Assembly (NCBI GenBank): GCA_937976335.1
Contig: CALJRW010000023.1
Location: 511-64,510, forward strand
DNA from: an uncultured bacterium
Lineage (GTDB): Bacteria > Bdellovibrionota_C > UBA2361 > CALJRW01
DNA length: 64,000 nucleotides
Direction: 5' to 3'
Shown here: positions 3,293 through 64,000 of the stretch, one piece after another
Numbering within the stretch: the first letter of the stretch is position 1
How the letters are laid out: each line of letters begins with the position of its first letter
The notes under the pieces: model-generated
Seen by the model: only the letters and a program-made list of their open reading frames with translations
Database searches by the model: none
Told to the model about the DNA's origin: nothing
Position numbers and translations under genes: made by a program

Positions 3293-3319
3293 TTTTTTTC
3301 TCCTAAAATCTTTTAAAAA

Positions 3320-3541
3320 TTATTTTTTTTCAAACTTTTCTAAATAGTCATTATAGTACTTCTGTCTTTTTAAGTTCTGAATTTCACGCTCTTGACGTTT
3401 CTTCTCAAGTTCTTGCCTTCTTAACAACTCTTCCTGTTCAGCTAATTGCTTTTGGTAGTCGTCACTTCCAGCAAATAGCGAGCATGAACTTACAGTAAAA
3501 GTTAAAATTAGAGCAAAAGTTAAAAATATTGTTTTAGACAT
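3320..3541 (-). CDS. Small coiled-coil lipoprotein (hypothetical)
   Basis: 73 aa. Signal peptide plus lipobox TVSSC, then a charged heptad-like QELEKKRQEREIQNLKRQK segment. First gene of a three-lipoprotein string on the minus strand. Confidence 0.45.
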   Translation of the reverse strand: MSKTIFLTFALILTFTVSSCSLFAGSDDYQKQLAEQEELLRRQELEKKRQEREIQNLKRQKYYNDYLEKFEKK

Positions 3542-4005
3542 AGTATTTGGAAAGTTTACAATAAGTTAGGTATTACCAAAAGTAGGAAAAGATTGCTTGC
3601 TAGTATTATTACGAATTGCTTAAATTTAACTGAATAAAATTAGTTGGAGAGATTTGGGTTTACATAGTTAGTGATGTGAGTTTTTTTTAACTTAAGTAAT
3701 TCACTTTAAATTGTTGATATTATTTAAGTATTTTAAGTACGGTAATATATATTATTTATGAAAACTAACTGGCGAAATATTTTAAATCAAAATTTTGCTA
3801 CAAAAAAATTTAACACTTTTGATAGAGAATTTAAAAAGAGAGCTCCAATGTGTTCTCTGACTTAGATAAAAAACTCAAGAAACTCTACATCTCCATAATC
3901 CTGGGTCACTAAGAAAAACAGTAAATACTTCAGAAGCTTAAATCTTACTTTCTTGATTAAATTACCTAACTTTATAACTTTACATTCTTAAGTTAAGCTA
4001 AACTT

Positions 4006-5625: not shown

Positions 5626-5650
5626 ATAAGTAAATACAAATGATTAGGAA

Positions 5651-5722
5651 TAAGTTAAGATTATATAGTTTTATGTTTGGAGAGATTCGCCACAGTAGGG
5701 CATCGACGAAAATGATTCTAGT
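5651..5722 (-). repeat. Relic sequence, copy A (decayed coding fragment, ...IIFVDALLWRISPNIKLYNLNL on the minus strand)
   Basis: A diverged second copy lies at 6876-6950 in the same orientation (minus-strand FIDALRWLISPNLNLKNL). The two copies sit on either side of the VapBC pair. Confidence 0.4.
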
Positions 5723-5811
5723 ATGTTCAAATTTTTTCTTTTTAGCAGCTTTTAGCATAACTAGTCTTACTAGATTGTAGACAATGAAGTAAGCAAGAAG
5801 TTCTTTCTTGA

Positions 5812-5968
5812 TGCCAGCAACATTTTTTGTTTATTTTGTTCTATTTTTTAGCGCGAGTAACATTCATCTTTTATTCTTAATTTTAAATTAATAATTTATG
5901 TGTATCGACAAAAATACTGAAAAGTTTCTTTATTTTTGAGATTACTTCTGAAGTAAATGTTGCTGGCA
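5812..5968. repeat. Perfect 14-bp inverted repeat pair (TGCCAGCAACATTT / AAATGTTGCTGGCA) separated by 129 bp
   Basis: Arm 5812-5825 is the exact reverse complement of arm 5955-5968. It lies in a 500-bp non-coding stretch and is followed by the tandem ATTTAGTTC-ATTTAGTTC (5971-5989). Confidence 0.5.
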
Positions 5969-6091
5969 CTATTTAGTTCTATTTAGTTCCTCCAGTTAGT
6001 CCCATCTTTTTTATTTTAAATGTTTTAGCACCTTAGCTTTTTCATAACGCTTTTTATCCTAAAATTCAGGTTTTTACAAAATAATCTAATA

Positions 6092-6120
6092 TTGACATAT
6101 AGTAATATATATAATATTAT
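6092..6120 (+). promoter_or_regulatory. Candidate sigma70-type promoter of the VapBC-1 operon (TTGACA, 17 nt, TATTAT)
   Basis: -35 TTGACA at 6092-6097 and -10 TATTAT at 6115-6120. The ATG at 6127 has no SD, and this spacing would give a leaderless or near-leaderless mRNA. Confidence 0.4.
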
Positions 6121-6126
6121 TATAAT

Positions 6127-6387
6127 ATGAAAAAAGAAAGAACAAGCATACTCTTACCAAAGCAACTTATGCTTAAATTAAGAAAAAAAGCTAAGGTTAA
6201 AAACCTTAGCTTAACAGCATTTATTGCACTCACACTTCAGGAAGGCTTGCGTTCATTAAACGAATCACAAACTCATATTTCTGCTTATAAATTTAACCCA
6301 CCAGTAGTTAAGGGTGATAGAGAGCCTAGTATAGATATAAGTAGTAGAGATTCTTTGTTCGAAGTTTTCGATAAAGATAGCAGTTAA
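6127..6387 (+). CDS. Ribbon-helix-helix type II antitoxin (VapB-like)
   Basis: 86 aa. N-terminal RHH-like TSILLPKQLMLKLRKKAKVKNLSLTAFIALTLQEGL. Its stop lies 1 nt before the ATG of the PIN gene. Confidence 0.6.
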   Translation: MKKERTSILLPKQLMLKLRKKAKVKNLSLTAFIALTLQEGLRSLNESQTHISAYKFNPPVVKGDREPSIDISSRDSLFEVFDKDSS

Positions 6388-6388
6388 T

Positions 6389-6829
6389 ATGAAAGGTGTG
6401 GATACTAACATATTAATTTATGCTCATAGAGCAGAAACAAAGCAACATAGAGATTCTCATTTTATACTAAAAGAACTTTCAGAGGGAGGTGATATTTGGG
6501 GAATTGCTTGGCCTAGTTTTTATGAATTTGTAAGAGTTGTTACTCATAGAAAAATTTTCCACCCTCCCTCAACATCTAAAGAAGCGTATAATTTTTTAAA
6601 TGATTTAGTAGTATGTCCAACACTCAGAATTTTAAGTCACGGTTCTGAACATTGGAAATCAATGAATCAAAATTTATTTCAAATTGGTGTAAAAGGTAAT
6701 TTAGTATTTGATTCTCAAATAGTAAGTATTTTTTTAGAAAATGGAATTTCTGAAGTTATCACCTATGATTCAGATTTTTATAGGTTTAGGGACATTAAAG
6801 TTAGCATTCCAGATGCTGATTGTCGTTAA
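6389..6829 (+). CDS. vapC: PIN-domain ribonuclease toxin (VapC family)
   Basis: 146 aa. N-terminal GVDTNILIYAH with the first acidic PIN residue, and a distal acidic residue in YDSDF. Tightly coupled to the upstream RHH gene. Confidence 0.75.
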   Translation: MKGVDTNILIYAHRAETKQHRDSHFILKELSEGGDIWGIAWPSFYEFVRVVTHRKIFHPPSTSKEAYNFLNDLVVCPTLRILSHGSEHWKSMNQNLFQIGVKGNLVFDSQIVSIFLENGISEVITYDSDFYRFRDIKVSIPDADCR

Positions 6830-6875
6830 ATTCGTTCATCTATTAAAAGAATGGCATTCACTTAAGCTCCTTTTC

Positions 6876-6950
6876 GCCCTTTAAGTTTTTGAGATTTAAG
6901 TTTGGTGAGATTAACCACCTGAGAGCATCAATGAACCTTTCATTCATGTA
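6876..6950 (-). repeat. Relic sequence, copy B (minus-strand IHYMNERFIDALRWLISPNLNLKNLKG, interrupted by stops)
   Basis: Similar at DNA and conceptual peptide level to copy A (5651-5722). Confidence 0.4.
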
Positions 6951-7122
6951 GTGAATCTTAAAACAGCAATGATTTAGGTAGTTTGAAATTTATGATTAAT
7001 ACTCTCACTTTAGTGATATAGGGGTCTATACAGGAGAAAAGACAGGTTTAACACTTCGACCTCAAGGTCCTAATGAACCTGGTTTTGTCTCTTCCGAAAC
7101 TATTGTCACAAACAAGCTCTAA

Positions 7123-7617
7123 CTAAATCTTTCTCTGACCTTGTCCAAAAATCATATGTCCTAATAAAAAACAAACCCCAACGCAAATAGCACTATCTGC
7201 AACGTTAAATGCTGGCCAGTGAAAATTTTTGTAGTAAACATCTAAAAAATCAATTACGTATCCTAGTCTGATTCGGTCTAAGATGTTTCCCAGAGCTCCA
7301 CCAAAAATAAAAGCAAGTGCCATTTGAGAATAGAACATACCTTTGTACTCTTTAATTAAAGCCGCACCTAAAAGAAAAAGAGCGATTGTTGTTAAAACTA
7401 CTAGGATTGCAATCCGCATTGTTTCAGAAAGGTCAGAAAGTAAGCCAAATGCGATTCCTTTGTTAAATCCAAGTGTTAAATTGAAAAAGCCTGGAACAAC
7501 CTCTAAAACTTCAGCAAATTTGAAGTTTTTTGCAATTTGTATTTTTGTAACTTGATCTAAGATAAAGATAATAAAAGATGTTATTAGAAAGTATTTTTTA
7601 TAAAAATTTTTTTTCAT
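7123..7617 (-). CDS. lspA: Lipoprotein signal peptidase (signal peptidase II)
   Basis: 164 aa, four TM segments. Conserved GGALGNILDR and FNVADSAICVG motifs. Confidence 0.92.
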   Translation of the reverse strand: MKKNFYKKYFLITSFIIFILDQVTKIQIAKNFKFAEVLEVVPGFFNLTLGFNKGIAFGLLSDLSETMRIAILVVLTTIALFLLGAALIKEYKGMFYSQMALAFIFGGALGNILDRIRLGYVIDFLDVYYKNFHWPAFNVADSAICVGVCFLLGHMIFGQGQRKI

Positions 7618-31535: not shown

Positions 31536-31581
31536 ATAAATATATTTTACATATATCGCGATATATGTAAAATATATTTAT
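31536..31581. promoter_or_regulatory. 46-bp perfect palindrome running into the ATG of the COG1373-type ATPase gene
   Basis: ATAAATATATTTTACATATATCGCGATATATGTAAAATATATTTAT is its own reverse complement, checked base by base and centred on CGCG. The last two bases are the AT of the start codon at 31580. Confidence 0.55.
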
Positions 31582-32731
31582 GGACAATGAATTAGTAAAA
31601 AGACCTAGTTGGTTAGAAAAGATTAATAGTTTGTGGAAAAAAACTTCTATAGTTTGGCTTTCAGGTGTTAGGAGATCTGGAAAAACTACACTTGTTAAAG
31701 AAATTAAAGATGCTACTTATATAAATTGTGATTTACCGAGCGAAGTAGAAAGATTGAGAGATCCAGAAACTTTTTATTCCTCTTGTTCTTCTAAGATAGT
31801 TATTTTTGATGAAATACAAAATTTAGCTAATCCAAGCATTGTACTAAAAATCGGAGCTGATGAATTTTCTCACTTCAAGATTCTTGCAACTGGCTCATCC
31901 ACTCTTGCAGCAACTGAAAAATTTAGTGATAGCTTGACGGGTAGAAAAAGAAGCATGGAACTAAGTCCTGTTCTTTATACTGAGTTAAATAATTTTGGAA
32001 TAAAAGATTTGTCTTTTAGAATGATAAGAGGTGGATTGCCACCTTCTTTGCTTTCAAAAGAAATTGATTATGATTTTTTTGCTGAATGGCTTGATTCTTA
32101 TTACGCGCGAGACATAAGAGAATTATTTAAAATAGAAAAAAGAAGTAATTTTCTTAAATTGGTTGAAATTCTTTTGGCTAGTAATGGTGATTTAATTAAT
32201 TTAAGTAAGTTAGCTACTATGACAGAGTTGTCACGGCCTACTGTAATGACTTATCTAGAAGCGATAGAAATAAGTCACGTAGTACATATTGTTAGGCCAT
32301 TCCATGGAGGAAAGAGAAAGGAAATAGTGAAACAAGGAAAAGTGTATGGATTTGATACTGGATTTGTAGCGTATGTAAAGGGATATAAGCATTTGAGAGC
32401 AGACGATCAAGGGCTTCTATGGGAGAATATTACTTTAGATATGCTAAAAACAATTTTTCCTCGAAAAACTATTAAATTTTGGAGAGATGAAAATAAAAAT
32501 GAAATTGATTTTATTGTAGATGACAAATCTACTTTGATCGCGATTGAAGCTAAGATGGATTATAAGAGATTTAACCCTAAAGCTTTCAAACTATTTAATT
32601 CACTTTATGCTACTAAAAAGAATTTTGTTGTCGCTCCAAATGTAAGAAAGCCTTTTGTTAAAAAGTATGATTCTCTAGAAGTTCATTTTGTTAATTTGTC
32701 AGATTTAAAAGAAGCTTGCGATCTGAAATAA
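31580..32731 (+). CDS. AAA+ ATPase with DUF4143-type C-terminal domain (COG1373-like), paralog C
   Basis: 383 aa. Walker A GVRRSGKTTL and Walker B VIFDEIQ. C-terminal ...NEIDFIV...IAIEAKM restriction-endonuclease-like tail, as in the paralogs at 56818 and 59056. Confidence 0.8.
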   Translation: MDNELVKRPSWLEKINSLWKKTSIVWLSGVRRSGKTTLVKEIKDATYINCDLPSEVERLRDPETFYSSCSSKIVIFDEIQNLANPSIVLKIGADEFSHFKILATGSSTLAATEKFSDSLTGRKRSMELSPVLYTELNNFGIKDLSFRMIRGGLPPSLLSKEIDYDFFAEWLDSYYARDIRELFKIEKRSNFLKLVEILLASNGDLINLSKLATMTELSRPTVMTYLEAIEISHVVHIVRPFHGGKRKEIVKQGKVYGFDTGFVAYVKGYKHLRADDQGLLWENITLDMLKTIFPRKTIKFWRDENKNEIDFIVDDKSTLIAIEAKMDYKRFNPKAFKLFNSLYATKKNFVVAPNVRKPFVKKYDSLEVHFVNLSDLKEACDLK

Positions 32732-51395: not shown

Positions 51396-51426
51396 ATACG
51401 ATATAGTATCTTATACTATATCGTAT
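51396..51426. promoter_or_regulatory. Operator-like perfect inverted repeat overlapping the antitoxin start codon
   Basis: ATACGATATAGTAT-CTT-ATACTATATCGTAT, with 14-bp arms at 51396-51409 and 51413-51426. The ATG is at 51425. Confidence 0.5.
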
Positions 51427-51646
51427 GAAAGTAACTGCAATTATTCCTGATGAGCTAGTTAAGGAACTTAGAAAACATTCGAATTCAAAAACTTTAACAG
51501 ATTGTTTAATTCATGCGATTACTGAATGGGTTTCAATTACCAAAATTAAACAGCTTAATGAGCAAGTAGCAAAATCTCCACTTAAGTTTGCAAAAAAATA
51601 TGATGCAAAGTCTGTACGTGTTTTAAACAGGAAATCTAGAGATTAA
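51425..51646 (+). CDS. Type II antitoxin (VapB-like)
   Basis: 73 aa. MKVTAIIPDELVKELRKHS... Its stop overlaps the toxin ATG (TAATG). Confidence 0.55.
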   Translation: MKVTAIIPDELVKELRKHSNSKTLTDCLIHAITEWVSITKIKQLNEQVAKSPLKFAKKYDAKSVRVLNRKSRD

Positions 51647-52026
51647 TGGTTTTGCTAGATACTTCTATTTGGATTGAATACCTTAAAAAATCAAGAAAAT
51701 ATTTTTTTCAAGTAAAAGAACTTTTAGAAACTGGTCAAGTTTTAGCTAATCAATGTGTATTTGGAGAATTACTACGAGGCGTGAGAAATACGAAAGAGCT
51801 TAAGATAGTTATGGAATTTTGGAAAAGCCTTGCAAAAGTTTCAGAAGAAGATCTTTGGATTGAGGCGGGAAGCTTTTCTTATGAAAAAAAACTTTATAGT
51901 AAAGGCGTAGGTATTATAGATCTGGTTATTCTTCTCTCTGCGAGAAGAGCTAAAGCTAAGCTTTGGACTCTAGATTCTAATCTAGATAAATTGCTAAAGA
52001 AAGGAGAGAGATATGAATTTAAATAA
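51646..52026 (+). CDS. vapC: PIN-domain ribonuclease toxin (VapC family)
   Basis: 126 aa. MVLLDTSIWIEYL, internal E (FGELL), and D (GIIDLVI), LWTLDSN. Confidence 0.75.
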   Translation: MVLLDTSIWIEYLKKSRKYFFQVKELLETGQVLANQCVFGELLRGVRNTKELKIVMEFWKSLAKVSEEDLWIEAGSFSYEKKLYSKGVGIIDLVILLSARRAKAKLWTLDSNLDKLLKKGERYEFK

Positions 52027-52069: not shown

Positions 52070-53608
52070 CTACGACAAATTATCTGACACAATCTTATAG
52101 GTTGGATCTTCCATAATATTAACATCTATGATTTCTGAAGAATGATCTAGTAGCTTTCGACAATCTGAACTTAAGTGTTTTAAATGTAGCTTTTTACCAG
52201 CCTTAAGATATCTCTCTGTTAGTTTATTTAGCGCTTCAATTGCTGAGTGATCAGCTACTCTGCTCTCAAGAAAATCTATAACTACTTCGTCAGGATCGCT
52301 TGCTGGCTTAAATTTTTCTTGAAAAACAGCAACTGATCCAAAAAAAAGTGGGCCATAAATTTCATAATGCTTCACTCCATTTTCATCAATGCTCTTTCGT
52401 GCTCGAATTCTCTTAGAATTTTCCCATGCAAATACCAAGGCTGAAATAATAACTCCAACAAGTACAGCGAGAGCTAGGTTATGAAAGAAAATGGTTATAA
52501 ATGTAACCGCTAGCATTACGAATATATCGGCCAGTGGTATTTTACCAAAGACTTTTAAGCTTGCCCATTCAAATGTACCAATAGCAACAACAAACATTAC
52601 TCCAACAAGTGCGGCCATTGGAAGTTTTTCAATGATAGGAGCGCCAATAAGAATGAAGATAAGTAGAGTTAGTGATGCAACAACTCCTGAAAGGCGATTT
52701 CTTCCTCCAGAGCTAATGTTGATCAGGCTTTGCCCGATCATTGCACATCCTCCCATTCCTCCAAAAAAACCAGTAACTATATTGGCAACTCCTTGACCTA
52801 CACATTCCTGATTTCCACGACCTCGTGTTTCGGTTACTTCGTCAATTAAGCTAAGAGTAAGAAGGCTTTCAATAAGTCCTACTCCTGCCATAATGCAAGA
52901 GTAGGGAAGAATGATTTGTAAAGTTTTAAATGTAAAAGGAATTTTTGGAATATATAGAGGAGGAAAACCTCCTGCAATAGAAGCGATATCGCCAACAGTT
53001 TTAGTTTTGATATCAAATCCGAGAACAAGCATCGAGACAACAATAATCGCAACTAGTGCTGCTGGAATTGCTTTTGTGACTTTTGGAAGAAGCCAAATTA
53101 TAGCCATTGTGAGAGCAACAAAGCCAAGCATTATGTAGAGAGGGGTGCCACTTAGCCATTGATAGTTGCCCTTAGAACTTGCTATCTTAAATTGTTCTAA
53201 TTGAGCTATGAATATAACTATTGCAAGTCCGTTAACAAAGCCAAACATGACAGGATGAGGAACGAGTCTGATAAATTTTCCAAGTCTAAGAAATCCAGCA
53301 ATAAGTTGTATAATACCCATTAAAACTACTGCTGCTAAAAGGTAATCTAATCCATGAGAAGCAACGAGTGGTGCAACAACAACTGCAATTGCACCTGTCG
53401 CGCCAGAGATCATTCCAGGTCTCCCCCCAATGATTGATGCGATTAGTCCTATCATAAATGCGGCATAAAGTCCGGAAAGAGGTGGGACGCCTGCAATTAT
53501 TGAAAAGGCAACAGCTTCAGGAATAAGAGCTAGTGCAACAGTAATACCTGAAAGTAATTCGTTTTTAAGATTGAAATTTGTTTTTTTTAATAAACTTAAT
53601 ATATACAT
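52070..53608 (-). CDS. SulP-family anion transporter with C-terminal STAS domain
   Basis: 512 aa. N-terminal LSGITVALALIPEAVAFSIIAGVPPLSGLYAA, at least 10 TM segments, and a STAS-like tail (YEIYGPLFFGS...DHSAIEAL). Confidence 0.9.
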   Translation of the reverse strand: MYILSLLKKTNFNLKNELLSGITVALALIPEAVAFSIIAGVPPLSGLYAAFMIGLIASIIGGRPGMISGATGAIAVVVAPLVASHGLDYLLAAVVLMGIIQLIAGFLRLGKFIRLVPHPVMFGFVNGLAIVIFIAQLEQFKIASSKGNYQWLSGTPLYIMLGFVALTMAIIWLLPKVTKAIPAALVAIIVVSMLVLGFDIKTKTVGDIASIAGGFPPLYIPKIPFTFKTLQIILPYSCIMAGVGLIESLLTLSLIDEVTETRGRGNQECVGQGVANIVTGFFGGMGGCAMIGQSLINISSGGRNRLSGVVASLTLLIFILIGAPIIEKLPMAALVGVMFVVAIGTFEWASLKVFGKIPLADIFVMLAVTFITIFFHNLALAVLVGVIISALVFAWENSKRIRARKSIDENGVKHYEIYGPLFFGSVAVFQEKFKPASDPDEVVIDFLESRVADHSAIEALNKLTERYLKAGKKLHLKHLSSDCRKLLDHSSEIIDVNIMEDPTYKIVSDNLS

Positions 53609-53869: not shown

Positions 53870-56704
53870 TTACTTTAAGAGCACTGGAATTTGAGATTCA
53901 ATTTTTTCATTCATATCAACTATGTTTAAACTCTTTTTTAGTTCCGAAAAATATTGAACCTTGCCCCAAATGTTTATATCTCCAATAACGTAAAATCGAT
54001 TTTTTGCTCTGGTTAATGCAACGTTTAGAATATTAGGTTTTGAAGATGCCCAGTTAACCGCTCCTGCACTATTTGCATCTCCGCCAAGTAGCATTATAAC
54101 AGTTTTTTCTTCTTTTCCTTGAAAAGCATGTACTGTGCCGACATTGTTTTTCTTCCAATAAAATATTTCTCTTTTGCTAGGAAGTTCTGCTCCGACCCCT
54201 AAGTCGTCAAAGTAAGAAAAAAGCCGCTCTTTTGTAAGTTTCTCTTTGAGTTTTGTGCGAATATTTCTAAAAGGACTAATTATAAAAAGCCTAGGAAGCT
54301 TTCTTTCAGAAATGATATGTTTTTTGATTAACTCAAAGCAAACCTTACTTTGATTCTCTACCCAATGTTTTGAAGAACAGCTACCTTCAATATGAAACCA
54401 TGTACTAATAGTAGATGAACTGCCAGCTTGAGAAGTTGAATGATTTGGCATATGAATCATAAAATTTTCATATGCAATTTTATTTGAAATGCTAAACATT
54501 GGATCTAAGCATCTTCTATGAATTCTTAAGGGAGAAGAAATCCAAGTTTTATAATCAAGATTTTTTGAAATGTATGTTCCAAATTGACTTTGTTTATCAG
54601 CTAAGGTTTGAACAGAATGATTTACAGGTGACCAAAGAATTCCCGTAGCTTGAGAGCTACAAGTTTTATCTGCGATATATTTTACTAATTTTTTTGGTAA
54701 ATTAAAAATGGGTTCTATTTGTTGTGGGTCACCAATAATTAAAGCTTTTTTAGCTCTCCAGAGAGCTCCCACTCCAGCTTGAGGAAGTGCTTGTCCTGCT
54801 TCATCTATTAGCAAATTTCCGATTGATTGAGGGCCAAGACTAGAAAAAAGTCGCTCAATAGATGCGAAGGTAGTTGATACGACCGGCACTATCATAAAAA
54901 ATAACTGCCATAATGCTAAATCTGCTTTTGTGTTAGAATCTCTTGTACCAGCAATTAATTTACTTATTGCAATAAGAGCTTTTGCAATTCTTTGATCGCT
55001 ATAAATACTCTTTAACCAAGCTTCATGTAGTTTTAAAGCTGAGACAAAAAGTTCGCCTCTCAAATTATTTAATTCATTAGAGTGCCAGTTACACTTTACC
55101 TGAAATTCACTTGTGTTAATGCCATTTGAGTTTACTTCAGGAATATTTTGTTTATTTAATATTTTTGAAATTTTTTTATGTTTTTTTAAAAAATCAACAC
55201 GTTTTTGTTTATAATCTTCTAAGCTTAAATTTGTGATGGAGTGTTTTCTAAGATACTCAAAAATAGTTAAAACTGAATCTCCATATTTTTCTTTTATTTC
55301 TTTTCGCCTTTCTTCGGGTTTAATAAAGAAAAAACCATTTCTAAATTTTTGACGGTTTTTTCTGTTTCCTAGTACAGCTGCTATTGTTCCCCAAGAGTTA
55401 GAATTAAAGTTGTTTATGCATAGTGATTCAGCAACTGGTTTAAAGTATGAACATTTTTTTTGAAAATTCTTTCCTAAAGCTTCCACAAGTGGCAATTCTT
55501 TAGAAATGTTTTCTACTGCTAAATTATTTGAAGATGCAACTACAATTTCATATGATTGTAGTTTTGTATCTAGTACAGGAACTTGCGTTCCATCAGATAA
55601 AAGTATCCAATTAGAAATAGCTTTAAATGGATCTTTAAAGCTAGTAAGGTTTAAGGCGCGTTTGCAAACTACATTCGCTATGATTTCTTTTAGCATTGTA
55701 GTTTTCCCAGTTCCGGGAGGGCCATTTACTGAAATGAGAGAAGAGGCGCTATTAAAATAATTATTAATACCAAGCTGTTGCATTAAGCTCATGTGATGAT
55801 CTTCTTCTGCAGGCCAAGTTCCAATTGGGCTCAGTTTGGCTTGAGTTTTGTTAAGTATTTCGTTTTTTGAACTCTCGTTGGAAACATCAATTTTTTCTAA
55901 TTGCTCAATTTCTGATAAATCTAAATATTTAAAAAGAGGTGAATCAGATTTTAAGCTATTAGCATCATCAATCATTATTTCTAAATCTCTTAAGTAAAAA
56001 CTATTTAGTATGTCAATTTTTGGTCTCTTAAAATCGCTTTCTTTAGATTCTAGTTCTTCTTTCTTTTTCTTTTTTGGAATTTCGTAAATTACAATTGAAC
56101 CCAAAAAAGAATAATTTTCTGGTTTCCAATTAGCTAAATTAGCAAGTTTTTTGTTGTAAAATTTAAGATCTTCCGCAGTTAATGGAACAGTTCCATGTTT
56201 TTCAAAACGCTCTAAGAAAAAGTTTGCAAATCTTAAGCTATAGAAATCAAATTTATCAACGCTTAGTTTATCTAAAGAGTCACTTTTTATCGCATCTAGT
56301 GCCAAAGGAAGAGTAGATAGTTGAAAATGATTTATAATGTTTCCAAACCTATCTAAGCTAATTCTTGCAAAACAAGTATTTAGTTCAAGTGATTGAGCAT
56401 CATTCCAATCTGCTATAAACTCAAGTTTTGTACTTTTTTCGACAGAATTTTTAATTTCTAACATTGGAAAAGCGCCCAAATAGACATGATATGCATATGC
56501 CTTATTAGGATCGCAGTTAAGTGCCGTAAGAATTTCAAAATTATGCCAAGGGAGTTTGGTATTGCTACAATCTAATTCTAAATTATATGTATGTTCGTTG
56601 AATTCTAAGACTTTGTTAAGGTTAAAAGGGTGAAAGTTCTCTAAAGCGTGCCAGTATTTTAGAATTTCTTTGGCTTTGTTTGGGATTGGGTTTACTTGAG
56701 TCAT
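53870..56704 (-). CDS. Upf1/DNA2-like superfamily 1 helicase with an uncharacterised ~320-aa N-terminal domain
   Basis: 944 aa. Motif I VNGPPGTGKTT, Ia ASSNNLAVENI, II LLIDEAGQ, III LIIGDPQQIEPI, V VGTVHAFQGKEEKTVI, VI LNVALTRAKNRFYVIGD. Residues 1-320 (YWHALENFHPF...ILNSFYLRDLE) match no motif I recognise. A K-rich linker PKKKKKEELESKE is present. Confidence 0.85.
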   Translation of the reverse strand: MTQVNPIPNKAKEILKYWHALENFHPFNLNKVLEFNEHTYNLELDCSNTKLPWHNFEILTALNCDPNKAYAYHVYLGAFPMLEIKNSVEKSTKLEFIADWNDAQSLELNTCFARISLDRFGNIINHFQLSTLPLALDAIKSDSLDKLSVDKFDFYSLRFANFFLERFEKHGTVPLTAEDLKFYNKKLANLANWKPENYSFLGSIVIYEIPKKKKKEELESKESDFKRPKIDILNSFYLRDLEIMIDDANSLKSDSPLFKYLDLSEIEQLEKIDVSNESSKNEILNKTQAKLSPIGTWPAEEDHHMSLMQQLGINNYFNSASSLISVNGPPGTGKTTMLKEIIANVVCKRALNLTSFKDPFKAISNWILLSDGTQVPVLDTKLQSYEIVVASSNNLAVENISKELPLVEALGKNFQKKCSYFKPVAESLCINNFNSNSWGTIAAVLGNRKNRQKFRNGFFFIKPEERRKEIKEKYGDSVLTIFEYLRKHSITNLSLEDYKQKRVDFLKKHKKISKILNKQNIPEVNSNGINTSEFQVKCNWHSNELNNLRGELFVSALKLHEAWLKSIYSDQRIAKALIAISKLIAGTRDSNTKADLALWQLFFMIVPVVSTTFASIERLFSSLGPQSIGNLLIDEAGQALPQAGVGALWRAKKALIIGDPQQIEPIFNLPKKLVKYIADKTCSSQATGILWSPVNHSVQTLADKQSQFGTYISKNLDYKTWISSPLRIHRRCLDPMFSISNKIAYENFMIHMPNHSTSQAGSSSTISTWFHIEGSCSSKHWVENQSKVCFELIKKHIISERKLPRLFIISPFRNIRTKLKEKLTKERLFSYFDDLGVGAELPSKREIFYWKKNNVGTVHAFQGKEEKTVIMLLGGDANSAGAVNWASSKPNILNVALTRAKNRFYVIGDINIWGKVQYFSELKKSLNIVDMNEKIESQIPVLLK

Positions 56705-56711
56705 TTGATTT

Positions 56712-56800
56712 TTAAATTATTTTTCCTTCCCATAATTTTTTCAGAAAGATTTCATATGCTAGAACTGTAATGTTATCTTCTGTTTTTATTATTCAATTCT
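56712..56800 (-). pseudogene. 3'-terminal relic of a COG1373-type ATPase (B-type)
   Basis: The minus strand translates to ...KTEDNITVLAYEIFLKKLWEGKII*, against the C-terminus RKTEDNITVLPYQIFLKRLWRGNII* of the intact gene at 59056-60192. DNA similarity is obvious over ~90 nt. Confidence 0.7.
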
Positions 56801-56817
56801 TGTATGTTTTAAAGCTT

Positions 56818-57957
56818 TTAGCTAAAAAATTCTTCTCCCTTGTTAAAAAACTCTATAATATTATCCTGATTAATTGCTATAGGTTTAACATCAGGATATT
56901 TTTTTAGAAACTTTCCAAGGCTGGAGCTCTTTTTTCTGAGACCTGATTTAACTTCAATTCCAAATGTTTTTTGTTTATTTTCGTATACAAAATCAAGTTC
57001 GTAATCACCTTCTCGCCAGTAACTTAGTTTTCCTCTTAAAGTGGCTAATTTTGCACCAACTGATGCTTCAAAAATATGACCATACATTTCTAAGTTTGGG
57101 AAACTATCTAAACCAAGAAAGGCATTAGATAAAGCGGGACACAAAGGTATAATTTTAGGGCTTGATGCTTTTTGTCTTAGAGTGTTTTTTGAATATTTTT
57201 GCAATTGTTTGATTAGGAAAGCTCCTTCAAATAGGTTTAAATAATGAGCAATAGTTGTAACATTTCCTTTATCTTGAAGTTGTCCAAGAATTTTTTGCAA
57301 TGATATTTCTTGCGCTGGATTTTTCAAAACTAATTCTAATGTTTGTCTAAAAAGAGCAGGTTTATTTATTCTTCTAATTCCTTGTATATCTCTTGTAATT
57401 ACCGGGTCGATTATCGATAGCTGAAGAAAATCTTGCCAGCGATCTAAGTCTTTAATGTACTTGTACGATTCTGGATAACCTCCAAAAAGCAAATATTTTT
57501 CTAAGTCAAGTTTGGCAAACTCTAGAGTTTCAACAAAATCCCAGTGATAAACTTTAGTAAGCTCAAAGCGTCCTGCTAAGCTTTCACTAAGTCCTTCTTG
57601 AATTGACATGCTTGCTGAGCCTAATAGTACAACTCTTAGATCTTTTTTCCCTCGTATTTTATCAAAAAGAAACTTAACTGCTTCACTCCAATTTGGAATT
57701 TTTTGAATTTCATCAAGAATTAATAGCGAAGGTGCCTTTGTATTATTTTCAGCTCTTTTCCAGTGTTCAAGAATCCAGTCTTCATTTGGTGGACTTACTA
57801 AATCAGCAGTTTCGTATATTTTAGAACCTTCCCACTCCTCATAAACCTGTTTTACTCCATAAGTTTTCCCAACTTGACGAGGGCCAAGTACTACCTGGAT
57901 AAGGGGATATTCTTCAGAAAGACGTTTTTTTAGAATTTTCGTGAAATTTCTAATCAT
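56818..57957 (-). CDS. AAA+ ATPase with DUF4143-type C-terminal domain (COG1373-like), paralog A
   Basis: 379 aa. Walker A GPRQVGKTY, Walker B LILDEIQK, and a C-terminal YELDFVYE...GIEVKSG nuclease-fold-like tail. Confidence 0.8.
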   Translation of the reverse strand: MIRNFTKILKKRLSEEYPLIQVVLGPRQVGKTYGVKQVYEEWEGSKIYETADLVSPPNEDWILEHWKRAENNTKAPSLLILDEIQKIPNWSEAVKFLFDKIRGKKDLRVVLLGSASMSIQEGLSESLAGRFELTKVYHWDFVETLEFAKLDLEKYLLFGGYPESYKYIKDLDRWQDFLQLSIIDPVITRDIQGIRRINKPALFRQTLELVLKNPAQEISLQKILGQLQDKGNVTTIAHYLNLFEGAFLIKQLQKYSKNTLRQKASSPKIIPLCPALSNAFLGLDSFPNLEMYGHIFEASVGAKLATLRGKLSYWREGDYELDFVYENKQKTFGIEVKSGLRKKSSSLGKFLKKYPDVKPIAINQDNIIEFFNKGEEFFS

Positions 57958-57985
57958 ATTAGTTGCTTATAGTGATTATTTACTT

Positions 57986-58028
57986 TTGCTAAGCTACTTT
58001 AGTAAATTTGCTAAGCTAGCTTAGTAAA
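57986..58028. promoter_or_regulatory. Tandem 21-nt direct repeat with an embedded 14-bp perfect palindrome, upstream of ATPase paralog A
   Basis: TTGCTAAGCTACTTTAGTAAA (57986-58006) and TTGCTAAGCTAGCTTAGTAAA (58008-58028). CTAAGCTAGCTTAG (58011-58024) is a perfect palindrome. It lies 29-70 nt upstream of the start at 57957. Confidence 0.4.
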
Positions 58029-58216
58029 ATTATAATTGTTTTTGTGTGTATTAGTCAAGCAGATTAATTTTTGTTTAAGAAAATTGTAAGCTTTATATTC
58101 TTAACTAAGATTTTTATGGAGCTAAGTAAATGAGAGATCAAGCAAAAGTCTTGTCAGATAACATAAGTTTTTCGTTATAACTATCTCCAGGAGGAGCAAC
58201 AAGAGTCAACAAAAGA

Positions 58217-58711
58217 TTAGAATTTATCTACAAAACTAACTTCATAGTCTTTAAATGAGTTTTGAAAAACTTGTTCAAGTTTTCTTTCTTGATCAATTGC
58301 AAACAATAAAGGCTCTCCACACTCTTTACTCCACCAGAACTTATTAACTAATCTTTGAGCAATTATATTTTTGTTCGTACGGATACAGATTACTTCTTGT
58401 ACAGTCTTAGGAAAAGCTTTTTTAACTCGTCTAACTCTTCCACTATCAGAATCAACAAATTGCCATTTGATAAAAATAACATCGTTAACTTTAAGCAGTG
58501 AAGTAATTTCATCAAGAATATTCTCTCTTTTATTTAGAGTAGTAACATCTGTATCGTTTTTTGCAATATTTTCAACACTGATTAAAGAAAAGGCACTACT
58601 TTTATTTTTAAAGCCATATTTTTTAATAACACTTGAATCATTAGTTATTTTACGAATAAAAGTTTCTTTGCCACTAGCAGAAGTGCCTACAACCCAAATT
58701 ATTTTTTTCAT
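58217..58711 (-). CDS. Small P-loop NTPase (kinase-like), function unknown
   Basis: 164 aa. Walker A at the extreme N-terminus, VVGTSASGKETF. Confidence 0.55.
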   Translation of the reverse strand: MKKIIWVVGTSASGKETFIRKITNDSSVIKKYGFKNKSSAFSLISVENIAKNDTDVTTLNKRENILDEITSLLKVNDVIFIKWQFVDSDSGRVRRVKKAFPKTVQEVICIRTNKNIIAQRLVNKFWWSKECGEPLLFAIDQERKLEQVFQNSFKDYEVSFVDKF

Positions 58712-58759
58712 GTCCTATTTATATAGCAAAAAAAATTAATTTAAACTAGTTAATTAGGT

Positions 58760-59059
58760 TTGACTAAGAATAACATCAAGCGTAAATTCTATGTAGTCAT
58801 GCATCAAACAATTGAAGATTTTCAGCCAACGCAAAATGAATTACGTGCTCAAGAATTTGTCAATTTACAAAAATCCTTTTCAGCTCAAAGATTTGATCAA
58901 GAAGCTTTGTTGATACATGACAAAATAGTTAACCTACTAGCTCAACCTCAGGTTTGGCAAGGCTTTGAAACAGAGCTTAGTCCAGAAGTGTTTCTTTGTG
59001 CGTTAATATCTAACGTAAGCAAAAGAGAAATTCTTTTTTGGGACAACTATAGTTGTTAA
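58760..59059 (+). CDS. Hypothetical protein
   Basis: 99-aa ORF (TTG start, first ATG 13 codons in). Divergent from the P-loop gene, and its stop overlaps the convergent ATPase by 4 nt. No motif recognised. Confidence 0.3.
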   Translation: MTKNNIKRKFYVVMHQTIEDFQPTQNELRAQEFVNLQKSFSAQRFDQEALLIHDKIVNLLAQPQVWQGFETELSPEVFLCALISNVSKREILFWDNYSC

Positions 59060-60192
59060 ATTATATTTCCTCGCCATAACCTCTTTAGAAAGATTTGGTA
59101 AGGCAGAACTGTAATATTATCTTCTGTTTTTCTTATTCGATCGCCAGTATATATCAAATAAAACTCTTCAATAATATTTTCTTCTTTTAATGCTTTTAAA
59201 CCTTTAAAATGTTTTGAAGAAGGATTGTTTGTTGACTTAACTTCAATCGCAACTTTTTCGCCTATAAGTAAGTCAACTTCAAATTGAGATGTTGAGCGCC
59301 AATAATTTAATTCAAGTCTTTTTCTCTCATATGCTAAATATGCTCGTATTTCTAAAATTATAAAATGTTCTAGTGCATCTCCAAATTGTTTGCTTTTTAA
59401 TTTTATTTTTCCAACCTGAGCAAGATATCTAGTAACTCCAAGATCAAATAAATAATGCTTTGCTCTAGAAACGGATTTTCTTTTTTTTGTTTTAGTAAAT
59501 CCAGATATACGAAAACCAATTAGTGTATCTTCAAGAATTTGTAGATAATTTTTTAAGGTACTTGGTGAAATTTGTAAGTCAGATGCAAAAGATTCATAGT
59601 TCATTTCTTGACCATTAGATATTGCAAGAGCATCTAAAAATTCTACAAATGCTGAAATATTTCTTGTTACAGCTTCTGCTTTGATTTCTTCACGTAAATA
59701 AGTATCAACATAAGCGCCAAGATCTTCTTCAGGCTCATCACTATCGTATATCTCCGGTAAGCCACCGTTATTAAGCATCTTTAATAGATTAAAATCTTCA
59801 ATCTCTTTTGAAACTAAAGGAAATAAACTTGCTTCTCTAGCTCTTCCTCCTAACAAGTTTGCAGCACCATGTTTTAATTTTCTTGCGCTTGAGCCAGTTA
59901 GTAAAAAAGTAATTTTTCTTTTTTGAATAAGACGATGTACTTCATCAAGAATTTCAGGCAGTTTTTGTACTTCATCTATCACTACCAGTTGCTTGTCATT
60001 GGTAATTATTTCAGAAAGTGCACTTGGGTTTCTAACTAAGGTAGAAAAAGTTTTACTCTCTAGTAGGTCAATTACAAGAGCATCTTTTAGTGTATAATCT
60101 ATAAGGGTAGTTTTTCCTGTCGCACGTGGGCCAAATAGAAAAAAAGATTTTTTTTCTAGTAATTTAGGTAGGTTAAGAGTTCTTTTGTACAT
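59056..60192 (-). CDS. AAA+ ATPase with DUF4143-type C-terminal domain (COG1373-like), paralog B
   Basis: 378 aa. Walker A GPRATGKTTL, Walker B VVIDEVQK, and a C-terminal FEVDLLI...AIEVKST tail. Confidence 0.8.
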   Translation of the reverse strand: MYKRTLNLPKLLEKKSFFLFGPRATGKTTLIDYTLKDALVIDLLESKTFSTLVRNPSALSEIITNDKQLVVIDEVQKLPEILDEVHRLIQKRKITFLLTGSSARKLKHGAANLLGGRAREASLFPLVSKEIEDFNLLKMLNNGGLPEIYDSDEPEEDLGAYVDTYLREEIKAEAVTRNISAFVEFLDALAISNGQEMNYESFASDLQISPSTLKNYLQILEDTLIGFRISGFTKTKKRKSVSRAKHYLFDLGVTRYLAQVGKIKLKSKQFGDALEHFIILEIRAYLAYERKRLELNYWRSTSQFEVDLLIGEKVAIEVKSTNNPSSKHFKGLKALKEENIIEEFYLIYTGDRIRKTEDNITVLPYQIFLKRLWRGNII

Positions 60193-60294
60193 GACAAATA
60201 ATATTAACTATGTTGATTTTCATGAATAATAACATATTGAGTGTGGTTTTGCAATGTAAAGTTATTTAGTTTTAACTTAAATAATTCTTATTCT

Positions 60295-60415
60295 TTCTTC
60301 AAAAACTTTCCAAGCCTAGAAGTCTCTGTTTTCTGCGATCTGACTTAAATTCAATTCCAAATGTCTTTTGTTTGTATTTGTATTCATAATTGAGTTTGTA
60401 ATCACCTTCCAACTA
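60295..60415 (-). pseudogene. 3'-terminal relic of a COG1373-type ATPase (A-type), with a frameshift relative to the intact copy and a premature stop
   Basis: The minus strand translates to LEGDYKLNYEYKYKQKTFGIEFKSDRRKQRLLGLESF*, against REGDYELDFVYENKQKTFGIEVKSGLRKKSSSLGKFLKK of the intact gene at 56818-57957. About 75-80% DNA identity by eye over ~120 nt with one indel. Confidence 0.65.
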
Positions 60416-60456: not shown

Positions 60457-62799
60457 ATGACTCCTGAAATCGCAATTCTATTACTCTTAATCGCCATCAT
60501 GATTTTTCTGTTCCTAACAGAAAAACTACCAATAGATGTAACCGCAGTATTAGCTCTCTCTGCTCTAATCCTTTTAGGTTACTTAACCCCAAAAGAAGCC
60601 TTCACAGGTTTTTCATCTCCGGCCGTAATAATCCTAATTTGCATGTCATTCATAGGAGCGGCTTTAAGTTCTTCAGGAGTGACTGATTCTTTAGCAAGAT
60701 ATTTAGGAAAATTTGTAGGTAAATCTGAAATTAAAGCAGTTTTAGTTCTCTCATTTGTATCTGCTTTTTTATCTGCATTTATGAATAACGTTGCAGCGGT
60801 TTCAGTGATGCTTCCAGCAGCTGCAAGTCTTGCATTTCAAGCAGAAGTCTCACCTTCAAGACTAATGATTCCTGTTTCTTTTGCTGCAATTCTTGGAGGA
60901 ATGACTACTCTTATTGGTACTACTCCAAATATTATAGCTGCAGATTTAATATCTCAAAGTAGTTCAAGTGAAATTGGCTTTGTAGATTTCGCATGGGTTG
61001 GTATTCCAATTGCACTAGCTGGAATTTTTTTTATTGTTTTTATTGCGAGGTTATTTCTCCCAAAAAAAGACTTTATCGGAAATGTAAAGAAAAAAGCATC
61101 AAAGCTTGCTTCGGTCTATAAGCTTTTCGAGAGACTTTTTATTTTAGAAATTCCAGAAAAATCTAGTCTTTCTGGAATGTCGCTTGGGGAAGTCAAACTT
61201 GGAAGTGTTTTAGGTTTAAATGTTATTGCAGTTCGGAGAAAAGAAAAAAAAATTCTAAATCCAAACTCTGAATTTGTTTTAGCGAGTAAAGACGAATTAA
61301 TAGTTCAAGGCAGGCTAAATAAATTTAAATCCTTACTTAGTTTTTCTAAGCTTAAAATAGAAAATGAAAAAAAATGGAAACAAGAAGATAAGGTTCTACT
61401 GACTGCAGAAATTCAAGTTTTAAATGAAAATTTTATTGGTAAAAACATAACTGAGCTGAATTTCTCAAACACTTTTGGTTTAGTTGTGGTTGGAATAAAG
61501 CGAGCAGAAGAGTTTATTGTTAAAGAAATTGCGCGAACTTCTTTAAGCTTGGATGATAGGCTTTTAGTAATAGGAAAGAGTGAAGCTTTTCAGGAAATAA
61601 AAAGAGATGGAAAATTTAAAATTCTAACTGAGATTAAAAATTTTAGTGAATTGGAAGACGATCATTTATTTTGGTTAAGCCCTGAAAATGATAGCGAATT
61701 AATTGCCACTCCTTTAAAAGAAAGCCGTTTATCCGAATATCTTGGGGCTCGTGTTATAGGGGTTCTTCGTAATCATCGGTTCGTTTTTGACTTAAAAGGA
61801 GAAACTGAAGTTATGCAAAATGATGCGCTCCTTGTTTGTTGTCAAAAAGAACTAGCGTCGTCACTTTCAAAGCTTAAAGACTTAATTCTAAAATCAGATT
61901 CTGCTGAATCTAAATTTAAGGAAGAGGATTTAAAGATTGAAGAAGCAGTTATTGCGCCACGTTCTAGTTTTATTGGAAAAACGTTAATTGAAGCAAATTT
62001 TAGAGAAAAATTTGATTTACAGGTCCTTGCTATCTGGAGAGAAGGAAAGCCCTTAAGGAGTGAGCTTGCAACGCGTGAACTAAAATTAGGGGATGCTTTG
62101 CTGCTACATGGTGCATCCAGTTCTTACTCCATTCTTAATGAAGAAGAAGGGGTGTTGCTTTTAACTGATAACTGGAAAGAAGATCTTAAAGGCGCAAACG
62201 TGCAGCCTAGATATAAGAGATGGGTGGCTATTTTTTCACTTATTCTCATGGTTTTGCTTTCTGTTTTTGAAGTTGCGCCTGTTCATATTGCAGCGTTCTT
62301 TGGAGCAGTTTTTGCTGTTTCATTTGGTGCTCTTAGGATGGATGATGCATATAAGAAAATTTCTTGGAGAATTATTGTTTTAATTGCTTGCTTAATGCCC
62401 TTAGGTATTGCAGTTACAAACTCTGGAACTGCGAGTTTTATATCAGATTTTCTTTTGTATGAATTAGGCAATTATGGCCCGAAAGTTGTTTTAATAGCGC
62501 TATGTCTAGTTTCAAGTCTTATTAGCCAATCACTCGATGCTTCAATTGCTATTGTTTTGTTAGCGCCAGTTGCTATTGAAACCTCAAATAAGTTAGGCCT
62601 TTCGCCTGTTAATTTTATGCTTGCGATGAGTATAGCTTCTTCGATTGCTTTTCTTACTCCTTTTAGTCACAAAGCAAGTCTTTTAGTGATGGGACCTGGT
62701 GGATATAGAGGGAGAGATTACTTTCGTTCTGGTGTCGGACTTTCGGTGATGTGCTTTATCTTACTATATTTCTTAATTATTTACTTTTATCCACTTTAA
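60457..62799 (+). CDS. SLC13/DASS-type permease with four central TrkA-C (RCK_C) domains
   Basis: 780 aa. N- and C-terminal polytopic halves. Four repeats of the TrkA-C pattern (G.SL.E..L....G..V.A+.R......P.....L...D.L.V.G), for example GMSLGEVKLGSVLGLNVIAVRRKEK...DELIVQG. Confidence 0.8.
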   Translation: MTPEIAILLLLIAIMIFLFLTEKLPIDVTAVLALSALILLGYLTPKEAFTGFSSPAVIILICMSFIGAALSSSGVTDSLARYLGKFVGKSEIKAVLVLSFVSAFLSAFMNNVAAVSVMLPAAASLAFQAEVSPSRLMIPVSFAAILGGMTTLIGTTPNIIAADLISQSSSSEIGFVDFAWVGIPIALAGIFFIVFIARLFLPKKDFIGNVKKKASKLASVYKLFERLFILEIPEKSSLSGMSLGEVKLGSVLGLNVIAVRRKEKKILNPNSEFVLASKDELIVQGRLNKFKSLLSFSKLKIENEKKWKQEDKVLLTAEIQVLNENFIGKNITELNFSNTFGLVVVGIKRAEEFIVKEIARTSLSLDDRLLVIGKSEAFQEIKRDGKFKILTEIKNFSELEDDHLFWLSPENDSELIATPLKESRLSEYLGARVIGVLRNHRFVFDLKGETEVMQNDALLVCCQKELASSLSKLKDLILKSDSAESKFKEEDLKIEEAVIAPRSSFIGKTLIEANFREKFDLQVLAIWREGKPLRSELATRELKLGDALLLHGASSSYSILNEEEGVLLLTDNWKEDLKGANVQPRYKRWVAIFSLILMVLLSVFEVAPVHIAAFFGAVFAVSFGALRMDDAYKKISWRIIVLIACLMPLGIAVTNSGTASFISDFLLYELGNYGPKVVLIALCLVSSLISQSLDASIAIVLLAPVAIETSNKLGLSPVNFMLAMSIASSIAFLTPFSHKASLLVMGPGGYRGRDYFRSGVGLSVMCFILLYFLIIYFYPL

Positions 62800-63273: not shown

Positions 63274-64000
<727 letters not shown>

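Follow-up and report, generated by a model that had tools for sequence, protein, structure and literature searches.

A widespread family of nuclease-free, Mokosh-like helicases with an unmatched N-terminal domain, and the probable accessory patch that holds one member in an uncultured bacterium of the Bdellovibrionota_C

Between two transporter genes of an uncultured bacterium (GTDB lineage Bacteria; Bdellovibrionota_C; UBA2361; CALJRW01) lies a block of 6.5 kb that raises the question of whether its genes serve immunity and, if so, whether they do so as one system or singly. The block occupies positions 53870-60415 of a stretch of 64,000 nucleotides (assembly GCA_937976335.1, contig CALJRW010000023.1, positions 511 to 64,510 of the forward strand), hereafter called the window and numbered from its first letter. 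It holds a large helicase, two COG1373-type ATPases (here cogA and cogB) with decayed 3' fragments of both, a small P-loop protein and an open reading frame (ORF) of 99 amino acids (aa). An initial annotation, made from the sequence without database searches, had described it as a defence-island-like patch devoid of housekeeping content; its ORF coordinates, helicase motifs, ATPases, fragments and P-loop protein were all found in place, and the absence of housekeeping genes from the block was borne out. The chief lead to emerge is the helicase family, which is widespread, rich in plasmid-borne members, Mokosh-like and devoid of a PLD nuclease, with an N-terminal domain (N-domain) unmatched in PDB, BFVD and the family databases.

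The helicase gene (53870-56704, minus strand), recognised from its ORF, Pfam and an AlphaFold2 model, encodes 944 aa, in which the N-domain is followed by an Upf1-like superfamily 1B (SF1B) motor and no nuclease domain is present. The motor core (aa 296-944; 53873-55819, minus strand) was delimited by its motifs, the model and Foldseek. Its helicase motifs are intact (GPPGTGKT at residue 328, DEAGQ at 634, GDPQQ at 658, HRRC at 729, FQGKE at 861 and NVALTRAK at 894), and motifs Q to VI follow in the expected order (Q-motif MQQ at about 308, I at 328, Ia at about 389-399, II at 634, III at 658, IV at 729, V at 857-865 and VI at 894-901) on two RecA domains with inserts of the 1B/1C type, as is characteristic of Upf1-like SF1B helicases. 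A helical insert at about aa 448-605 is shorter than in relatives of about 1100 aa. Pfam recognises AAA_11 and AAA_12 alone, from residue 318, and leaves residues 1-317 blank; no HKD motif occurs in the protein, and Pfam and motif inspection agree with the initial annotation that there is no second enzymatic domain. The top Foldseek matches for the motor are SETX, IGHMBP2, Aquarius, UPF1, Sen1, ZNFX1 and DNA2 (E 3e-16 to 1e-11). By analogy with its family, the helicase would be expected to translocate 5'->3' along single-stranded RNA or DNA in an ATP-dependent manner.

The N-domain (aa 1-295; 55820-56704, minus strand), defined from the AlphaFold2 model, hhalign and conservation in the family, carries the conserved motifs W18xxxE22xF24, EGxTC111FA, S130-T-L-P-W134, I232-LNSF-236 and GxW297P. 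Residues E22, F79, C111, LNSF233-236, W297 and Q309 are invariant in the family, and no PD-(D/E)xK, HKD or HNH signature was seen among these residues. The domain is itself modelled with a predicted local distance difference test (pLDDT) of 87.4 and a predicted template modelling score (pTM) of 0.83, and it is confidently predicted to be docked on the motor, since the model of the whole protein reaches a pLDDT of 90.5 and a pTM of 0.92. Foldseek found no fold match for it in PDB (best E 0.99, with a template modelling (TM) score of 0.13) or in BFVD (best E 0.48), TM staying at or below 0.15, and no sequence match was found in Pfam, PADLOC, NCBIfam, PHROGs or PDB sequence profiles. The profile search and structure prediction that the initial annotation had suggested for this region thus matched no component of a described system, and the first 320 or so residues, which it could not recognise, stayed unrecognisable by sequence and by fold.

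The same annotation had called the helicase an orphan, which proved mistaken: among 8000 candidates scored in a search of 5.8 billion proteins, 3959 matched at E<=1e-3. Members of a short form (about 970-1010 aa) align end to end with the window helicase at 32-37% identity, and in those of a long form (about 1100 aa), present in Pseudomonas, Burkholderia, Dickeya, Photorhabdus, Desulfovibrio and Legionella, the coiled-coil insert that separates motif I from motif II is longer. Both forms carry the N-domain (hhalign probability 100, E 3e-85), as do, more distantly, the helicases of Klebsiella plasmids (hidden Markov model (HMM) E 6e-28), and of 80 related metagenome loci 77 have the domain together with the motor. 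Among 1.84 billion representatives, searched without a filter, the domain had 154 matches, and in all but one of these it forms the N-terminus of a protein of about 900-1200 aa. In the exception, P0292 (1479 aa; Logan SRR27941609, contig 3117-7556), a Ser/Thr kinase precedes the N-domain and the helicase; this kinase matches the PD-T4-6, mad6 and MkoA kinase profiles, and no PLD gene lies near it. The N-domain is an obligate part of the helicase family.

Relatives were present on 657 plasmid records, of which 537 are from Klebsiella and 569, from any genus, are conjugative. Among 5426 complete Escherichia coli chromosomes two have the gene, as do 15 E. coli plasmids, and 13 IMG/VR contigs hold a family member. 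The family is thus sparse and mobile, with members on chromosomes, on many conjugative plasmids and on a few contigs that resemble prophages, and it may have spread by horizontal transfer. A phage origin was considered separately and rejected, as 3 of 50,697 phage records match, besides the IMG/VR contigs mentioned.

The best PADLOC match of the window helicase and of all the relatives tested is MkoC, the Mokosh type II protein. That helicases of this family can occur in defence islands is seen in several members. In E. coli H6 (chromosome 2915177-2942806) the gene (product WP_073464713.1), an allele carried by 2 of 5426 complete genomes, belongs to an island with an integrase; on one side of it is a DUF4238 gene and on the other a triad of TerB-N, ATP-binding and DEAD-box helicase genes, neighbours which by annotation are probably the DUF4238 and Shango systems reported in Millman 2022 and Rousset 2022. 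The copy on a Klebsiella IncF plasmid is flanked by insertion sequences (IS) and lies near an HNH and ATPase pair and a DUF4145 gene, and that on a Xanthomonas plasmid adjoins a restriction endonuclease and a NYN protein. The neighbour sets were scanned with PADLOC and Pfam as aggregate counts and not locus by locus; the immediate (+-1) neighbours in the metagenome loci (n=127) include HerA, Cas3, Cas7, restriction endonuclease (REase) III, AriA (two), PD-T4-2_B (two), mad3 of MADS (three), PDC-S01 and McrBC, and about one-tenth of the 127 match strong defence profiles. No PLD neighbour of the helicase was found in a search with the PLD domain of MkoC.

Among the readings considered, a part in defence is the one we favour for the helicase, as plausible though short of an even chance; counted towards it are the sparse and mobile spread, the copies in defence islands, the defence-type neighbours, the kinase fusion of P0292 and the Mokosh proteins as best PADLOC matches. 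The mechanism proposed is that of a stand-alone, nuclease-free surveillance helicase aimed at mobile genetic elements, a 'Mokosh without the PLD blade'. The N-domain would be its specificity or gating module, by analogy with the CH domain in Upf1, and its target would be a nucleic-acid structure or a protein of foreign origin; the motor, driven by ATP, would go on to move along single-stranded RNA or DNA, stripping or unwinding intermediates of replication or transcription and possibly passing them to host nucleases. In its fullest form, which we regard as rather doubtful, the proposal is that the helicase is a widespread, unnamed single-gene system against mobile elements, in which the N-domain senses the invader and ATP-driven remodelling alone interferes.

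Several points weigh against the defence reading as a whole. No experiment ties the helicase family to defence, and the helicase has no effector domain; therefore the means by which an invader would be halted is speculative. The +-1 neighbours in the metagenome loci are mostly metabolic genes, and the six closest relatives (32-37% identity, short form) are solitary amid housekeeping genes, with at most one RelE/MqsA pair nearby. On the Klebsiella pneumoniae MOBH/MPF_F plasmid pKP18-2110-2-1 the gene is placed as a backbone gene would be, in the midst of the transfer region, with traG on one side and on the other a lytic transglycosylase whose cluster also holds thioredoxin and DsbA/DsbC-like genes, a placement that fits a role in plasmid biology as well as one in defence. 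The block in the window bears no sign of recent transfer. Finally, PDC-S01, the family of the two ATPases beside the helicase, is an unvalidated candidate nominated by its embedding among defence genes, and one of its representatives did not protect E. coli B from T4, T5 or T7 (PMC12881386).

The alternative that survives best is that the helicase works for its carriers, the mobile elements, or in the general nucleic-acid housekeeping of its host, and not in immunity, in which case the window copy would be a domesticated accessory helicase; the roles envisaged are processing of transferred single-stranded DNA, plasmid establishment, anti-defence, R-loop removal and transcription termination (cf. 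Sen1/SETX, IGHMBP2). The preponderance of conjugative plasmids among the carriers and the transfer-region copy of pKP18-2110-2-1 agree with service to the element, but other copies lie in IS- or integrase-flanked accessory regions beside restriction and defence-type genes, not in transfer operons, and one member is fused to a defence-type kinase. For a housekeeping role speak the setting of the closest relatives, the nearest solved structures, which are RNA-metabolism helicases, and an allele of Pseudomonas chlororaphis that is conserved within the species, as its cluster holds 152 member sequences; a family present in two of the 5426 E. coli chromosomes is far too sparse for such a role. The lack of a nuclease or other effector and the native composition of the block also count for the alternative, which as a whole is possible though unlikely. 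As a separate observation, the long-form helicase adjoins DsbD/DsbC/thioredoxin-type genes in P. chlororaphis and in the Klebsiella plasmid, which are unrelated replicons; this is perhaps a coincidence.

The genes beside the helicase bear on the question of a joint system. cogA (56818-57957, minus strand; 379 aa) and cogB (59056-60192, minus strand; 378 aa), assigned with Pfam and PADLOC, both combine AAA_14 (E 1e-22 and 6.5e-21, respectively) with DUF4143 (E 6e-24 and 5.6e-28), a domain classed as PD-(D/E)xK (PMC3424549). The Walker A, Walker B and putative nuclease-side motifs are GPRQVGKT, ILDEIQ and ELD...IEVK in cogA and GPRATGKT, VIDEVQ and EVD...IEVK in cogB, and the two proteins are 27% identical. 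cogA matches the PADLOC profile of PDC-S01 at E 5.8e-124 (residues 3-371 on positions 4-386 of 395), and cogB matches PDLC04790 at E 3.2e-62 (with its best segment at residues 136-370, against positions 174-419 of 422) and, near full length, PDLC04789 at E 1.1e-47 (residues 10-326 on positions 13-346 of 375). With AAA_14 and its Walker motifs, DUF4143 and a near-full-length profile match in each, the two show no structural difference from PDC-S01 and are members of it; they would be paralogous ATPase-nuclease fusions of this candidate family. PDC-S01 is described as a candidate made up of one gene, plentiful in both Bacteria and Archaea, ranked fourth in frequency among the 'defence' candidates of prokaryotes and awaiting validation (PMC12988326). 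The remark in the initial annotation that COG1373-type ATPases are associated with defence islands is therefore correct, the function being a candidate one. A third intact paralogue (AAA_14 and DUF4143, PDC-S01; 31580-32731, plus strand) stands alone amid core genes 22 kb away, and the tally of three copies and two fragments in 64 kb suggests that the COG1373 family expands within this genome.

The two fragments are real, as tblastn and DNA repeats agree. The decayed cogB-like 3' end (56709-56797, minus strand; tblastn and repeat D1) gives a tblastn match at 56715-56792 that is 77% identical over 26 aa (cogB aa 353-378) and stops, on its upstream side, 10 nt short of the start codon of the helicase; repeat D1 pairs 56709-56797 with 59053-59141 at 82% identity and a distance of 2344 nt. 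The decayed cogA-like 3' end (60264-60409, minus strand; tblastn and repeats D2 and D9) has a broken frame and matches at 64% over 28 aa and at 45% over 20 aa; D2 and D9 (60294-60409) pair with 56899-57012 at 84% and 76% identity, about 3397 nt apart. Because the difference between the two repeat spacings, 1053 nt, equals the missing 5' part of the second cogB copy, the simplest history would be that a cogA-cogB unit was duplicated long ago and that a later deletion, of about 1.05 kb, brought cogA beside the helicase.

The region upstream of cogA (57985-58058, minus strand), located by a sequence pattern scan, contains a promoter-like site and tandem repeats. The site is the best sigma-70-like match of the block (TTGACT-18-TATAAT, 11 of 12 positions), and directly downstream of it are two tandem 22-nt near-palindromes (57985-58028) of the form TTTGCTAAGCTA(C/G)(T/C)TTAGTAAA. 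These repeats have the look of an operator to which a dimeric repressor would bind; no gene for such a regulator is seen close by.

The P-loop protein (58217-58711, minus strand; 164 aa), recognised from weak profile matches and its codon score, is a near-orphan. Its Walker A begins at G9, the residue given in the initial annotation, and is deviant (GTSASGKET, with GK-E-T where PhnN has GK-D-S). The weak matches are to AAA_18 (E 0.004), PhnN (0.0034), adenylate kinase (0.0063) and the PHROG guanylate kinase (0.0013). There is no match in PDB, and the sole homologue among the 5.8 billion proteins is 39% identical, 170 aa long and encoded on a 1-kb contig. The gene has a gene-like codon score of 0.22, and its product is tentatively taken as a lineage-specific kinase-like protein with an N-terminal motif of the PhnN/guanylate-kinase type. 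The 99-aa ORF (58760-59059, plus strand, TTG start), taken from the ORF list and scored for codon usage, exists where the initial annotation placed an orphan ORF; it is probably not a gene, because its codon score of 0.06 (0.10 from an internal ATG) falls in the range of antisense shadows (0.04-0.19) and below that of real genes (0.20-0.28), and because it has no family match in Pfam, PADLOC, NCBIfam or PHROGs, no homology search having been made.

Gene fragments, duplication and deletion scars, three COG1373 paralogues in 64 kb, a near-orphan P-loop gene, a doubtful ORF and the negative assay of PDC-S01 (PMC12881386) could together indicate that the patch is evolutionary debris, in which selfish or decaying genes accumulate, COG1373 propagates itself and the helicase is an inert passenger. 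This account is improbable. None of the four genes (those of the helicase and the P-loop protein, cogA and cogB) is truncated; their catalytic motifs are all intact and their codon usage is host-like (scores 0.21-0.28), and the helicase keeps every family-invariant residue, which argues for purifying selection.

The arrangement of the block suggests independent promoters, as gaps of 113-260 nt separate its genes and cogA has a promoter-like site of its own. In an all-against-all clustering of ORFs from the 80 related loci the largest genuine neighbour cluster was found in four loci, the apparent 'recurrent' clusters being antisense shadows of the helicase gene; COG1373 occurred beside the helicase as two weak matches only, and neither the P-loop protein nor the 99-aa ORF recurred there. 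With no neighbour family in more than 4 of the 80 loci, no co-occurrence of COG1373 and separate upstream regions, the multi-gene module that had been considered in the initial annotation finds no support. Given the lack of recurring neighbours, the gaps and the promoter-like site of cogA, the block genes may well be independent single-gene modules, adjacent by chance, and not one operon-encoded system, a view we hold short of conviction. One cooperative immunity system, with the helicase as sensor or motor, the PD-(D/E)xK domains of COG1373 as effectors in place of the Mokosh PLD and the P-loop protein as accessory, is very improbable: four genes share a strand within 6.5 kb, the cogB remnant before the helicase start implies that a COG1373 gene once lay immediately upstream, COG1373 offers the nuclease domain that the helicase lacks and one strong PDC-S01 occurs among the 127 +-1 neighbours of relatives, but no neighbour is conserved and COG1373 hardly recurs, PDC-S01 is, in definition and in distribution alike, a unit of one gene (PMC12988326), the third paralogue is solitary, cogA comes with a strong promoter-like site and an operator-like repeat of its own, and the P-loop protein has a single known homologue.

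The setting of the block was examined in a scan of 45 window ORFs, comprising the block, its flanks and 36 others of at least about 70 aa. The flanking genes, assigned with Pfam, encode a SulP transporter (52070-53608, minus strand) and a CitMHS/TrkA_C (SLC13-like) transporter (60457-62799, plus strand). The rest of the window is core chromosome, with ClpX, topoisomerase subunits, PEPCK, IF3, fumarase and PGI; the fumarase shares up to 70% identity with proteins from Bdellovibrionales, Oligoflexia and metagenome-assembled genomes of Bdellovibrionota. There are no tRNA genes in the window, no integrase or IS among the 36 other ORFs, no flanking repeats around the block besides the COG1373 scars and no GC break at the block, the GC content of which is host-like, as is its codon usage. 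A defence island in the classical sense, with integrase, tRNA or IS and a foreign composition, thus finds no support in the window. The looser term 'defence-island-like' stands in that candidate genes are present, and fails in that none is validated and they form no single system. The block is perhaps best seen, with due hesitation, as a small accessory patch inside an otherwise core chromosomal region. A scan of GTDB species genomes with the SLC13-like transporter found no close relative (best match 39% identical), and the sole other copy of the locus is an identical contig in one Logan assembly.

Some further features of the window were recorded. A 16S rRNA gene begins at 63274 (63274-64000, plus strand), about 470 nt downstream of the SLC13-like transporter gene, so that an rRNA operon lies within 3 kb of the accessory patch. 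Beyond the SulP gene is a type II toxin-antitoxin-like pair (51425-52026, plus strand) formed by a 73-aa VapB-like ORF and a 126-aa PIN-domain protein, which overlap by one base; Pfam counts two PIN-domain ORFs in the window, the second being separate from this pair.

The helicase family matters beyond this locus under either of the two leading readings. If it is an immunity gene, it would represent a Mokosh-like system without any nuclease, in which interference would come from the motor alone or from recruitment of host factors, and the N-domain would add a new fold to the sensor domains of bacteria. Through the hundreds of Klebsiella conjugative plasmids that carry it, the family would then shape the traffic of phages and plasmids in clinical strains. 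If it serves plasmid transfer instead, an unrecognised backbone function would be at hand. The Klebsiella plasmids (537 of 657) and the defence island of E. coli H6 imply that its function, whichever it is, would bear directly on phage therapy and plasmid epidemiology. Profile-based defence annotators may, moreover, call PLD-less proteins 'Mokosh type II' from the helicase core alone.

The gene combination of the block fits no named system, as the initial annotation had stated, and nothing specific was found in the literature on a PLD-less Mokosh or an Upf1-like single-gene system. The nearest comparison is with MkoC of Mokosh type II, which is reported to be a monomer and to have been protective, in one screen, against an ssDNA phage alone (bioRxiv 10.1101/2025.07.10.664194). 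MkoC and the window helicase are both single large proteins of similar size with an Upf1-like (COG1112) SF1 core, and both families consist of stand-alone genes frequently found on plasmids or islands. In the core, however, the two are about 24% identical, and the window helicase matches the MkoC profile over residues 461-916 (positions 509-950 of 1136) with 227 bits, whereas a genuine MkoC, a 1162-aa Arsenophonus plasmid protein that was traced from the yjhR remnant of E. coli to serve as a control, scores 1387 bits on positions 1-1135 of 1136. The Arsenophonus protein has PLDc_2 with HSKIVMGD at residue 1105, and PLDc_2 with HSKIV(M/I)xD was detected in both positive controls, this protein and E. 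coli YjhR; the window helicase has no PLDc, PLDc_2 or HxKxxxxD and ends 43 residues past motif VI, leaving no nuclease. The N-domain HMM does not detect the N-terminus of MkoC, nor does the N-domain alone match any PADLOC profile. The SF1 core of Mokosh type II is thus present, the C-terminal PLD nuclease and the full-length profile match are absent, and the window helicase was rejected as a member because the defining nuclease is missing.

The control protein led to an observation of its own. The E. coli K-12 pseudogene yjhR is a C-terminal remnant of a Mokosh type II gene (helicase end and PLD, with HSKIVIED). Remnants of this kind are found in 1730 of the 5426 E. coli genomes, and the copies inspected are IS-interrupted or IS-adjacent and lie beside a pseudogene of a phosphorothioation-dependent restriction endonuclease.

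Mokosh type I, formed by the helicase-kinase MkoA and the PLD nuclease MkoB, resembles the window helicase in that MkoA profiles match it (E 1e-21 and 1e-13) and in that the relative P0292 bears an N-terminal kinase like that of MkoA. It differs in that the window helicase has no Pkinase domain, the kinase being confined to that rare relative, in that no MkoB adjoins it, its neighbours being COG1373 and SulP, and in that the N-domain alone matches no MkoA profile. CnuH of CoCoNuT and Nhi/AbiO are likewise Upf1-like or SF1 immunity helicases (PMC10542128), and the coiled-coil insert of the larger relatives is a further likeness to them; no McrB or McrC family, which the partners CnuB and CnuC resemble, is found among the 45 window ORFs scanned, and the Nhi and AbiO profiles reach the Walker A region alone of relatives (E 1e-4 to 1e-7) and do not match the window helicase. 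The eukaryotic Upf1-like SF1B helicases (SETX/Sen1, IGHMBP2, UPF1, Aquarius, ZNFX1 and DNA2) share the motif set and provide the nearest solved structures, by Foldseek as by sequence profile, and the CH domain of Upf1 is, like the N-domain, an accessory N-terminal domain docked on the motor. They are 11-15% identical to the window helicase, which is, unlike them, a solitary bacterial gene, and their CH domain, Sen1 'brace' and DNA2 nuclease are unrelated to the N-domain. The window helicase is best described as a PLD-less relative of the Mokosh helicases with an N-domain of its own.

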